In this document: positions 37,123-40,053 of the stretch, piece by piece
How the letters are laid out: each line of letters begins with the position of its first letter
Position numbering within the stretch: the stretch's first letter is position 1
Source of the DNA: Escherichia phage EP_H11
Sequence record: OP688485
Strand: one strand, 5' to 3'
DNA length: 64,000 nucleotides
Program-made: the position numbers and the translations under genes
Notes under the pieces: model-generated
Database searches by the model: none
What the model was told of the DNA's origin: nothing
What the model saw: the letters and a program-made list of their open reading frames with translations, nothing else

Positions 37123-37290
37123 ATGAAGATTCCGACTCTTGATCAATTACTCACCACAGCAATGCACACGGTGATTCGTCGTCTGGTCTGGAATATCCCT
37201 AAAAAGTATTTCTGGATGGTGGTGTTGGCCACCATCATTATCAGCGGATTCGCCACTTTTAGAACTCTGTTTTGGAGCCTGTTAGGATGA
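37123..37290 (+). CDS. small membrane protein (55 aa)
   Basis: ATG 37123; hydrophobic segment FWMVVLATIIISGFATF. Confidence 0.5.
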   Translation: MKIPTLDQLLTTAMHTVIRRLVWNIPKKYFWMVVLATIIISGFATFRTLFWSLLG

Positions 37291-38045
37291 CCTTCCGTAT
37301 CGATGCTGTTCGCCACCTTCGCCAAATAGCCGAGCTTAAGAAAGCTCACGGCGACTCTGTGTGGCATGTTCGGGCCTATGATCGTGCAGCCCGTTCCCTT
37401 GACGATTACCCGTATGGGGTAACTTCCCAGATGAACTTCACTACAATCCCATGGATTGGTAATGGGATCGCTAGCGAGCTCGAAGACTTCGCTAAGTATG
37501 GCACCATGACTCCTAAATTCGTGGAGCTTATGTCTAAGATACCAGAAGGTCGTGTAGCTTACTCCACTGAGTTTAAGGATATTATTGAATCCTACCTAAT
37601 GGAGGTAACCAAGCTGGGTATTTCCGAAGGTAGCTCAGGCCGAATCTCTACTGCTGGTTCGGTGCGTCGTGGTAAGATGTGGATTCGTGATGTAGACCTG
37701 CTTACTACCTTCCCGCCAGAAGTGGTTCGCCACGCTTTCCGTCTTACTGGTATGGAAGAACTTTATGGCGGGGATAAAAAGATCCGCTTCGTCCATACTA
37801 ATACTGGTCTGGAGTTCGATATCAAGATCTGTCCAGAAGAATCCTGGTATGCATGCTTACTCCACTCTACTGGATCAATGCAGAATAACGTGCACATGCG
37901 TTCTGTGGCTAAGCGTATGGGCATGACTCTTAATGAGTATGGCCTGTTTAATGTAGAGACTGGTGAGAGGGTAGATACTAATTCTTCTGAGGAAGAACTA
38001 TACCAACTGCTGGGTCTGGAATACGCAGAGCCAGAGAATCGTTAA
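37287..38045 (+). CDS. family X DNA polymerase (Pol beta-like, compact)
   Basis: HhH/8-kDa-like AYDRAARSL..IPWIGNGIASELEDF; catalytic GSVRRGKMWIRDVDLL (two Asp) and EFDIKICP (third Asp); LLHSTGSMQNNVHMRSVAKRMGMTLNEYGLF. Confidence 0.85.
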   Translation: MTFRIDAVRHLRQIAELKKAHGDSVWHVRAYDRAARSLDDYPYGVTSQMNFTTIPWIGNGIASELEDFAKYGTMTPKFVELMSKIPEGRVAYSTEFKDIIESYLMEVTKLGISEGSSGRISTAGSVRRGKMWIRDVDLLTTFPPEVVRHAFRLTGMEELYGGDKKIRFVHTNTGLEFDIKICPEESWYACLLHSTGSMQNNVHMRSVAKRMGMTLNEYGLFNVETGERVDTNSSEEELYQLLGLEYAEPENR

Positions 38046-38047
38046 TT

Positions 38048-38083
38048 CCGCTCTTTTAGGGTGCTAAAAGGCTGTTAAAGTGT
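38048..38083 (+). promoter_or_regulatory. class I 36-nt element, copy 11
   Basis: CCGCTCTTTTAGGGTGCTAAAAGGCTGTTAAAGTGT; 26 nt before ATG 38110. Confidence 0.65.
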
Positions 38084-38109
38084 CAATCCAACTGTAAGGA
38101 ATAACAAAG

Positions 38110-40053
38110 ATGGAAAAAGTCGCTGCTCTGGTAGAGCAAATCAAGAATGCGGCTAATGCATATTATAATGGTGACCAGCCCATTATTACGGACGAAGAGT
38201 TCGATGCTCTTACCGAGAAATTAGCTGAGCTGGACCCTAATAACCCACTCCTTACTACCCCAGGCTGGGGTGTAACCGAAGCTGCAGAACATCTGGCTAA
38301 GTGCCCACATGGCTCATTCGTGGGTGGTCTTGACCAGGTTAAGATCGGTGCTGTGGAAGAGGGATTTAACTTCCTCCATGGCCACGAAGAAGTTAAGGGA
38401 TTCGTTGCTTCAGCTAAGCTGGACGGTATCTCGGTAGTTCTGTATTACGACTACGACGGTAACTTCGTCCGTGGTTTAACTCGCCACGATGGTGTATTTG
38501 GTCTGGACATCACGAAGAATCTGGAGTGTGCAGAATTCCCTCGCCAGATTCCTAAAGGTATTAAAGAAGTCCGCTGCGAAATCGTTATTCCTGATGATAA
38601 GTTCGAGCGGATTAGTCACGAGTACAGTAACCAGCGTAATGCTGCTTCTGGTATTGCTCTGGCTAAGTATAGTGATCCTGCATTAATGGAACTGCTTGAT
38701 GTAGTTGCATATTCGGTAACGGCATTCTACGAGGATGTGGATCACGAGACATGGATGGATGACTACAACCAGCTTCTGCTGTGCTTAAGTAAGGCTGGGT
38801 TCAAAGTAGTTAAGTACTTCGTTCTTCCAGCAGGTTATGTCAATAGCTGGCTGGTTGCTAACCCACCATCTAAGTTCCGCGAAGATCCAGTCTGCAACTA
38901 CCTGCTGGATGGTGTAGTTCTCGGATCTATGAATGTTGACTGGGATGAGAATATGTTGGGCAAGAATACTGTCCATTATAAGATCAAGTATCAATCAGCA
39001 TTCTATGACACCACCGTGGTTAAGGTGCACTGGGTAGTTAGCGGTTACGGCCGAGTCGTGCCTACTGTTGAGTTCGAGACGGTAGACATGAGTGGCGTTA
39101 ATGTAACTTATGCATCCGGATGGAATGCTGAGTATATCAAGAATGCTGGTATCGGACCTGGCGCTAAGATCAAGATTAGTCGTCGTAACGAGGTAATTCC
39201 TCATATCGAAGAAGTCGTGGAACCCGTCACTGCGGTGATTCCAGAGTTCGTAGATGGGGTACGTACCTTCTGGGATGGTGTACACATCCGCATCAAGACC
39301 AAGCTTGACCCGATGGTGATTCGTACCATTATCCGAGACTTCGCTCCTAAGGGTCTAGGTGGCGTAAATATCAATAAGTTTGCTGAGCAGGCTAAACTTG
39401 ATGACATTTCCATGTTGAATGACATAATAAAGACTGGCCCATCTCATCCGGTATTCGGCATGGTAGAGATGTACGATGGTCCTCTCCAGCTTACTCGTCA
39501 GTCCTTCTTCAATATGAAGGAACGTCCTACCTCTATGGACCACATGCTGACTTGTACCTGGACGGATGGTCTTGGTTATGCTACAGGAATGCGTATTGCT
39601 ACTGCGGTAACCCGTGACCAGATGATTCGTGTGCTGCGTAACAATAGCTTCCACGACATGGTTAATGACGGTATCCAGGTCAATACCGAGGACTACGAAA
39701 TCTGTAAGGCAATATATGATGCCTGCATGGGTTCCGTAGCTAAGAAGATTGCAGAGAATCAGGAAGTAATCCTGAAGGTGCTGAATCTTCCTCTGAACTG
39801 GGTAGCCTCTAAGGTAGAGGAACCGCTTCCGGAAGGTAAGTTCAAGATCTGCTTAACTGGTAAGCTTAGTAAGCCTCGTAGCGAACTGGTTAACTCCTGG
39901 ATCAAATACGGCGTAGTCGAAGTCGGTATCGGCGACGCAGAATATCTGGTATGCGACAAGCCGAGTCAGTCCAGTAAGTTTAAGGCTGCCGAAGCTAAGG
40001 GTACCAAGATCGTTACCGAAGATCAATTCCGTAAAATCATTGGAGCTGAATAA
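38110..40053 (+). CDS. ligA: NAD-dependent DNA ligase
   Basis: Domain Ia-like N-terminus YYNGDQPIITDEEFDAL, adenylation lysine motif AKLDGIS, C-terminal BRCT-like KICLTGKLS..YLVCD..SSKFKAAEAKGTKIVTEDQF. Confidence 0.9.
   Translation: MEKVAALVEQIKNAANAYYNGDQPIITDEEFDALTEKLAELDPNNPLLTTPGWGVTEAAEHLAKCPHGSFVGGLDQVKIGAVEEGFNFLHGHEEVKGFVASAKLDGISVVLYYDYDGNFVRGLTRHDGVFGLDITKNLECAEFPRQIPKGIKEVRCEIVIPDDKFERISHEYSNQRNAASGIALAKYSDPALMELLDVVAYSVTAFYEDVDHETWMDDYNQLLLCLSKAGFKVVKYFVLPAGYVNSWLVANPPSKFREDPVCNYLLDGVVLGSMNVDWDENMLGKNTVHYKIKYQSAFYDTTVVKVHWVVSGYGRVVPTVEFETVDMSGVNVTYASGWNAEYIKNAGIGPGAKIKISRRNEVIPHIEEVVEPVTAVIPEFVDGVRTFWDGVHIRIKTKLDPMVIRTIIRDFAPKGLGGVNINKFAEQAKLDDISMLNDIIKTGPSHPVFGMVEMYDGPLQLTRQSFFNMKERPTSMDHMLTCTWTDGLGYATGMRIATAVTRDQMIRVLRNNSFHDMVNDGIQVNTEDYEICKAIYDACMGSVAKKIAENQEVILKVLNLPLNWVASKVEEPLPEGKFKICLTGKLSKPRSELVNSWIKYGVVEVGIGDAEYLVCDKPSQSSKFKAAEAKGTKIVTEDQFRKIIGAE

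Follow-up and report, generated by a model that had tools for sequence, protein, structure and literature searches.

Escherichia phage EP_H11 (sequence record OP688485) carries two adjacent genes, one for a compact DNA polymerase of family X (Pol X) and one for a DNA ligase of the NAD-dependent LigA type. Both lie in the 64,000-nucleotide stretch of DNA that was analyzed here, which we call the window. Together with the spacer between them they form the following locus (lengths in amino acids, aa):

37287-38045, + strand: compact family X DNA polymerase (Pol X), 252 aa from ATG
38046-38109, + strand: intergenic element between Pol X and LigA, one copy of a promoter-like repeat that occurs across the window
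38110-40053, + strand: NAD-dependent DNA ligase of LigA type, 647 aa, identified by Pfam, PHROG and phmmer (against E. coli LigA, 2owo)

The window is about 94% identical in nucleotide sequence to Escherichia phage vB_EcoM_IME392 (MH719082.1). The IME392 orthologues AXY86063.1 and AXY86062.1 stand in the same order and share 93.7% and 97.4% protein identity with Pol X and LigA, respectively; their names, "putative DNA-directed DNA polymerase family X" and "putative DNA ligase", come from annotation only. The presence of Pol X together with an NAD ligase has been described as characteristic of SP15-like phages whose thymidine is hypermodified, and "EcoM_IME92" and EP_H11 were named as members of this group (Missoury et al., bioRxiv 10.1101/2025.03.26.645540). 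IME392 is also listed among the SP15-like phages in the paper on phage Carin-5, in which Pol X and ligase were noted as well (PMC12686479).

The Pol X protein

The product of 37287-38045 belongs to the family X DNA polymerases and has intact catalytic residues. A preliminary description of this DNA gave the coordinates and the + strand of the open reading frame (ORF) correctly, and the motifs that it quoted are present in the translation (GSVRRGK..IRDVDLL, EFDIKICP, LLHSTGS and NEYGLF). The ATG overlaps the stop codon of a small ORF upstream (ATGA). In Pfam, the thumb domain DNA_pol_B_thumb (PF14791) matches residues 191-252 with 71.5 bits against a cut-off of 25 (5e-20), and the 8-kDa helix-hairpin-helix (HhH) domain HHH_8 (PF14716) matches with 48.5 bits against a cut-off of 30 (1e-12). 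The top phmmer match among PDB sequences is Thermus PolX (3.7e-20). In the HMMER alignment of the two proteins the GS..DxD motif is aligned, D135 and D137 correspond to the DxD of Thermus PolX, and D178 to its third aspartate. The family assignment made in the preliminary description thus withstood a check that the description itself had named, the alignment of the catalytic aspartates. D135, D137, R127, R128, N201 and R205 are unchanged in all 43 compact homologues compared, and D178 is an aspartate in 37 of the 43. N201 and R205 match the minor-groove residues N279 and R283 of Pol beta, a correspondence established by eye. The predicted structure of Pol X was superposed on the palm and thumb of Pol beta at 1.9 Å over 160 residues and on the African swine fever virus (ASFV) Pol X at 2.3 Å over 154 residues. 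The idea that the protein is some other Pol beta-fold nucleotidyltransferase, such as a terminal transferase or a base-modification enzyme, and that the ligase is unrelated to it, appears highly improbable. Comparison with IME392 points to purifying selection on the gene (ratio of nonsynonymous to synonymous divergence, dN/dS, 0.07).

The protein consists of an 8-kDa-like HhH domain (residues ~1-82), a linker, a palm (~94-183) and a C-terminal thumb (~184-252). The fingers subdomain, also called the D or HhH2 subdomain (PF10391 or PF14520), is present in Pol beta and in the bacterial PolX proteins of Thermus and Deinococcus but missing here. Pfam yields zero matches to it, the stretch from the 8-kDa domain to the palm has ~29 residues versus ~90 in Thermus PolX (HMMER alignment), and the gap is plain when Pol X is aligned with PF10391-positive homologues. 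ASFV Pol X, too, does without this subdomain, which is therefore dispensable for family X membership. The preliminary description called the enzyme a minimal Pol X; it was right about the family but inexact about the size class. An 8-kDa domain, present in the larger window protein, is missing from ASFV Pol X (174 aa). An ASFV-type minimal Pol X, composed of a palm and a C-terminal domain in ~170-180 aa, is ruled out by the length of 252 aa and by the confident 8-kDa-like domain. The window Pol X also lacks a PHP domain, to which the title of a PNAS 2010 paper assigns the apurinic/apyrimidinic (AP) endonuclease activity of B. subtilis PolX.

The 8-kDa domain has diverged at the lyase positions. 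In the ungapped HMMER alignment of this domain, residue K72 of Pol beta is replaced by E64, K68 by G60 and K35 by H27, while Y39 is kept as Y31. E64 is unchanged throughout the IME392 subclade; in the set of 43 compact homologues, 21 have Lys and 12 have Glu at this site. A canonical lyase activity on 5'-deoxyribose phosphate (5'-dRP) is not supported for Pol X, given the change of K72 to E64, with K35 and K68 also not kept.

As the preliminary description had supposed, Pol X is uncommon in tailed phages: tblastn matches were obtained in 15 of 50,697 phage records, and none of the PHROG families matches the protein. In an exhaustive profile search of cluster representatives (50% identity), about 40 of the best 150 have the compact form, with lengths of 234-273 aa and one end-to-end match. 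All of the compact representatives that were looked up come from phage-like contigs. A scan of IMG/VR with patterns derived from the compact Pol X alignment produced 180 pattern matches, none of which was confirmed by tblastn. Metagenomic fusions were also noticed. In the order of ligase, NT5C and ankyrin fusions these are P0094 (637 aa), an ATP-dependent ligase joined to Pol X; P0053 (406 aa), an NT5C 5'-nucleotidase joined to a compact Pol X; and P0036 (1,055 aa), an ankyrin-repeat protein joined to a compact Pol X.

The ligase and the intergenic element

LigA is matched in Pfam by the adenylation domain (PF01653, 71.9 bits, 8e-20), the OB domain (PF03120, 49.8 bits, 3e-13) and Nlig-Ia (PF22745, 31.5 bits against a cut-off of 27, 3e-7), and PHROG 3869 ("NAD-dependent DNA ligase") spans residues 2-644 (7e-89). 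The BRCT domain stays below the threshold in the single-sequence Pfam search (16.9 bits versus 21.3); a clade profile made from six ligases of SP15-like phages matches the isolated BRCT domain 1l7b at 6e-6. The same profile aligns with residues 7-668 of the 671 residues of E. coli LigA (2owo, E 6e-63), an end-to-end match that covers domain Ia, the adenylation domain with KxDG, the OB and HhH regions and BRCT. In the window protein these correspond to domain Ia (~9-51), the adenylation domain with KLDG and K103, OB (301-371), the HhH region and BRCT (~574-645). The label of a full-length LigA, given to the protein in the preliminary description, thus holds for its extent but not for its domain content. 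The tetracysteine zinc finger, which E. coli LigA keeps, is deleted, and its position is a gap in the profile alignment to 2owo. Of the six phage ligases compared, the segment is kept only in that of RHph_TM30 and is deleted in those of the window, RP13, Ab1-TPeters, SP-15 and YerA41. In this shortened form the YerA41 ligase is reported to be active with NAD+. The ASFV ligase is ATP-dependent, whereas the window enzyme is of the NAD-dependent LigA type.

K103, D105 and G106 of KxDG are unchanged across the ligase clade, as are Y18, Y19, D28 and F31 of domain Ia; LigA residues Y18, Y19, D28, F31 and D32 align with Y22, H23, D32, Y35 and D36 of the E. coli enzyme. Judging by these residues, LigA has the domain Ia that confers NAD+ specificity. 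The position of E. coli K290 is a glycine in LigA and is variable across the phage clade, including the active YerA41 enzyme. Like Pol X, LigA is under purifying selection (dN/dS 0.05 in comparison with IME392). Synonymous divergence from IME392 is 0.60 for Pol X and more than twofold lower, 0.25, for LigA. This difference suggests that a mosaic or recombination boundary lies close to the intergenic element.

The spacer contains a hairpin at 38053-38070 (CTTTTAG-GGTG-CTAAAAG, with a 7-bp A/T-rich stem), followed by GGCTGTTAAAGTG and then by the ribosome-binding site of LigA. Both the hairpin and GGCTGTTAAAGTG are kept in IME392, in contig L004 and in the more distant contig L006, in which the loop and one stem position differ. 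The hairpin has 4 matches in the window versus 0.02 expected. The class I element that the preliminary description had placed between the genes proved to be a repeated one, as its core, AAAGGCTGTTAA, has 17 copies in the window versus 0.34 expected. Sixteen of them are on the + strand just upstream of genes:

3033, 6382, 7223, 9564, 11303, 13439, 15295, 18879, 22480, 32906, 38067, 45024, 50219, 51616, 54331 and 55406, + strand: AAAGGCTGTTAA copies
32935, - strand: AAAGGCTGTTAA copy

The genes downstream include those for topoisomerase II, PolA, the exonuclease and LigA, and the copies that were checked stand about 30-90 nt upstream of the start codons of replication-type genes. GCTGTTAAAGT looks like an extended -10 box. 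On these sequence features, the AAAGGCTGTTAA element probably acts as an early or middle promoter, perhaps joined with the upstream stem-loop. Pol X has no promoter-like element of its own and is the last gene of the preceding block of small ORFs. Because LigA has such an element and Pol X has none, co-transcription of the pair is not established. A strict Pol X-LigA operon was rejected as unproven, since the promoter-like element stands between the two genes.

Genome setting, replicative polymerase and gene linkage

Several further genes of the window bear on the role of the pair:

12422-13393: 5-hydroxymethyldeoxyuridine (5-hmdU) DNA kinase (PF18723, 4e-35)
14202-15275: thymidylate-synthase homologue
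18921-22208, + strand: SP15-like family A replicative DNA polymerase (PolA), 1,095 aa, with an N-terminal domain of uracil-DNA glycosylase (UDG) fold (~18921-19406) and a C-terminal extension
31244: RNase H, present in the window
54374: DEDDh-type exonuclease, present in the window

The last two had been pointed out in the preliminary description and were found as named. The hypermodified DNA that it assumed has a basis as well: besides the 5-hmdU DNA kinase and the homologue of thymidylate synthase, a PIG-L deacetylase and glycosyltransferases are encoded in the window, and the hypermodified-thymidine setting is therefore real. The clear PF18723 match at 12422-13393 contrasts with a statement that the 5-hmdU kinase is not detectable, made in a passage on RP13, EP_H11 and IME392 (Missoury et al., 2025). 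An SbcC-like ATPase, topoisomerase II, a helicase and split RNA polymerase beta' subunits are also encoded in the window.

The window PolA falls in the SP15-like clade with the C-terminal extension. Its best PDB matches are the DNA polymerases of phiLo (9qhs, 8.5e-40, aligned up to query residue 1068, that is, into the C-terminal domain) and YerA41 (9qlh), and its best phage relatives are those of RP13, Ab1-TPeters, RHph_TM, SP-15, phiLo, LIS04 and YerA41. The Pfam scan of PolA did not detect a UDG domain. A profile of the N-termini of the window, RP13 and Ab1-TPeters polymerases gave zero matches among PDB sequences even at E 10, and a word-indexed homologue search with the N-terminal fragment alone gave nothing at E <= 0.001. 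With hhalign, the N-terminus can be aligned to the UDG domains of canonical type in phiLo and RHph_TM30 (E 1.6e-4, 143 columns). By hhalign and fold search, the N-terminal domain has the UDG fold. Its motifs are diverged: GDERE and HHA stand in place of the GEAPG/GEAPA and HPS of phiLo and RHph_TM30, with the histidine of motif B kept. The UDG motifs of YerA41 likewise deviate in the alignment, and that enzyme is reported to be active.

The order of Pol X followed by LigA is conserved beyond EP_H11. It is found with a spacing of ~60 nt in IME392-like contigs; in L006, with Pol X 58% and LigA 73% identical to those of the window; in L018, with Pol X 39.5% identical and the next gene 47.5% identical to LigA; and in L017, with Pol X 33% identical. 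The last of these contigs has the following arrangement:

8001-15181 of L017 (NCBI GCA_958327115.1): compact Pol X, LigA, two small ORFs and a 1,226-aa PolA

The L017 PolA lacks the N-terminal UDG domain, as its alignment begins at residue 180 of the window PolA. At the level of phage genomes, the 15 records matched by Pol X include at least seven that have an SP15-like PolA or come from published relatives of phages of this kind, namely IME392, Ab1-TPeters, RP13, YerA41, GN1, Vibrio 1.031.O and Carin-5. A specific AP endonuclease was seemingly absent from the genomes studied by Missoury et al. (2025). The RP13 record (L012) contains at 3460-4263 a gene annotated as exodeoxyribonuclease III, which lies upstream of both LigA and Pol X, at distances of 0.8 kb and 8 kb, respectively.

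Other genes of the window deserve mention in their own right. An acyl-carrier-protein-like (PP-binding) gene at 40053-40307 shares its first base with the end of the LigA stop codon; L017, too, has a PP-binding gene, at 5738-5983, 2 kb upstream of its Pol X. A Lon protease inhibitor resembling PinA is encoded at 40582-41001, and a cluster at 41609-44382 contains DUF7217 with a sub-threshold MptE-like match and a weak sub-threshold match to glycosyltransferase-1. A full-length transporter of the betaine/carnitine/choline type (BCCT) at 8174-9556 (PF02028, 1.6e-91), unusual cargo for a lytic phage, lies within the block of replication and modification genes. A NADAR domain protein is encoded at 53010-53669. 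For the ORF at 32054-32560, the IME392-like homologue gives a weak match to Acb1, which counteracts the cyclic oligonucleotide-based antiphage signaling system (anti-CBASS).

A probable role of the pair in the repair of hypermodified DNA

The closest system with biochemical data is that of YerA41, with gp158 as Pol X and gp127 as ligase. The YerA41 Pol X cuts deoxyuridine (dU) DNA after the action of PolA, cuts tetrahydrofuran (THF) substrates to leave a 3'-OH, and fills the gap; the NAD-charged ligase seals the resulting nick, and Pol X co-elutes with PolA (Missoury et al., 2025). In the same study, SP15-like PolA is described as having an active N-terminal UDG domain and a C-terminal domain, and all SP15-like genomes except phiLo are said to encode Pol X and a DNA ligase. 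YerA41 shares with EP_H11 an SP15-like PolA with the UDG fold and the C-terminal domain, hypermodification genes, Pol X, and a LigA without the tetracysteine finger. The palm and thumb of gp158 are 37% identical to those of the window Pol X (E 6e-25). The proposal of a phage-encoded gap-filling and nick-sealing module, put forward in the preliminary description, is supported, as it agrees with the biochemistry of the YerA41 Pol X and NAD ligase. For the further idea of that description, the sealing of programmed nicks, the sequence offers no evidence.

By this analogy, we consider it likely that the pair forms the Pol X/NAD-ligase arm of an SP15-like, base-excision-like repair in phages that replace thymidine with a hypermodified 5-hmdU derivative. 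In such a pathway, the UDG domain of PolA would remove dUMP that has slipped in, or an unmodified or damaged base, ahead of the fork, leaving an abasic site that PolA would bypass. Pol X would act at the abasic site or at a gap and fill one or a few nucleotides through the two-metal site of D135, D137 and D178. By analogy with gp158, it may itself incise the abasic site. LigA would then seal the nick with NAD+. PolA is the presumed partner that generates abasic sites for Pol X. From the YerA41 work we infer, by analogy, the enzymatic activities of the EP_H11 Pol X, LigA and PolA; we also infer the activity of the PolA UDG domain, a Pol X-PolA complex and the mode of 5'-dRP removal.

A number of observations weigh against this reading. 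Some of them concern the enzymes. With K72, K68 and K35 replaced in Pol X, the removal of 5'-dRP is left with no candidate enzyme. ASFV encodes a separate AP endonuclease, whereas none was found in the window, and a tblastn search of the window gave no homologue of the RP13 exodeoxyribonuclease III or of an ExoIII-type AP endonuclease. The diverged UDG motifs make uracil excision by the window PolA unproven. The comparison with gp158 has its own limits: with 298 aa, the YerA41 protein is longer than the window Pol X (252 aa, no fingers) and contains an additional segment in which an HhH2-like GIG motif occurs, and the N-terminal halves of the two proteins cannot be aligned by BLASTP. Both gp158 and ORF24 of RP13 appear to keep the fingers subdomain. 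Because of the mismatch in the N-terminal half and the missing fingers, the AP-endonuclease activity and the PolA binding of gp158 may not transfer to EP_H11.

Other observations concern the linkage of the genes. The promoter-like element parts Pol X from LigA, and the two genes may be transcribed separately. The genes are adjacent in the window but ~30 kb apart in YerA41, and they are also not adjacent in Ab1-TPeters, RP13 and contigs L007 and L019-L022. As the L017 case demonstrates, the pair is not strictly tied to a fused UDG. Finally, tblastn with the window and RP13 Pol X detected no Pol X in SP-15, the RHph_TM phages, LIS04, phiXF1 and phiLo, of which phiLo was the expected exception. 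Hence the statement on all SP15-like phages except phiLo is reproduced here for only a part of the group.

Another possible role of the pair is in finishing replication, with RNase H removing RNA primers, Pol X filling the gaps and LigA joining the Okazaki fragments. In SP15-like PolA, the UDG domain stands at the position of the 5' nuclease in E. coli Pol I. The pair lies in a replication and transcription block together with RNase H, the helicase, topoisomerase II and PolA; LigA shares its promoter-like element with PolA and topoisomerase II; and the order of RNase H followed by Pol X and LigA recurs in L018 and L004. However, a replicative PolA is able to fill primer gaps, and most phages with their own replisome manage without Pol X, given the few records that match. 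Moreover, Pol X occurs chiefly in phages that combine an SP15-like PolA with hypermodified DNA, and the YerA41 assays point to the processing of abasic sites. As an account of the pair as a whole, replication finishing therefore seems unlikely to us. As regards the ligase, such a role is compatible with repair. Since LigA was the only ligase seen in the window, it very likely works in lagging-strand joining too, and we take it as almost certain that it joins Okazaki fragments.

A third scenario retains repair and changes the source of the lesions. Here, Pol X and LigA would mend abasic sites or nicks produced by anti-phage glycosylases or modification-dependent nucleases of the host, apart from any phage UDG domain. 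The pair in L017 adjoins a PolA that has no such domain, compact Pol X genes are common on phage-like contigs with no PolA nearby, and host glycosylases and nucleases directed against modified bases of phages have been reported recently. On the other hand, a host system that attacks the EP_H11 modification is not known, and the downstream mechanism is identical to that of the repair outlined above, with only the source of the lesion differing. Counter-defence as the main role of the pair in EP_H11 has, in our estimate, a rather low probability, slightly lower than that of replication finishing.

A broader view of the same data can be entertained tentatively. The fingerless Pol X composed of 8-kDa domain, palm and thumb might be a distinct, undescribed structural class that is widespread in phages, with one subclade that has lost the lyase lysines. 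Together with the zinc-finger-less LigA, it might form a portable two-gene repair cassette independent of the fused UDG-PolA and used, for instance, in counter-defence against host glycosylases acting on modified bases. This view is motivated by the L017 PolA, which has no UDG domain; we regard it as rather unlikely.

Thus, the repair arm of the SP15-like type remains the reading that we favor. The pairing of the two genes is already annotated in a near-identical phage and has been tested biochemically in a relative. The architecture of the proteins and their conserved adjacency add modestly to this. Apparently new are the three-subdomain Pol X, the LigA without the tetracysteine finger, the replacement of K72 by Glu, and the gene order kept in four lineages.

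In summary, these results do not overturn the current understanding. They place EP_H11 in a small group of hypermodified-thymidine phages with their own base-excision-like repair arm, and they provide a second, structurally simpler type of Pol X on which the YerA41 model can be tested.

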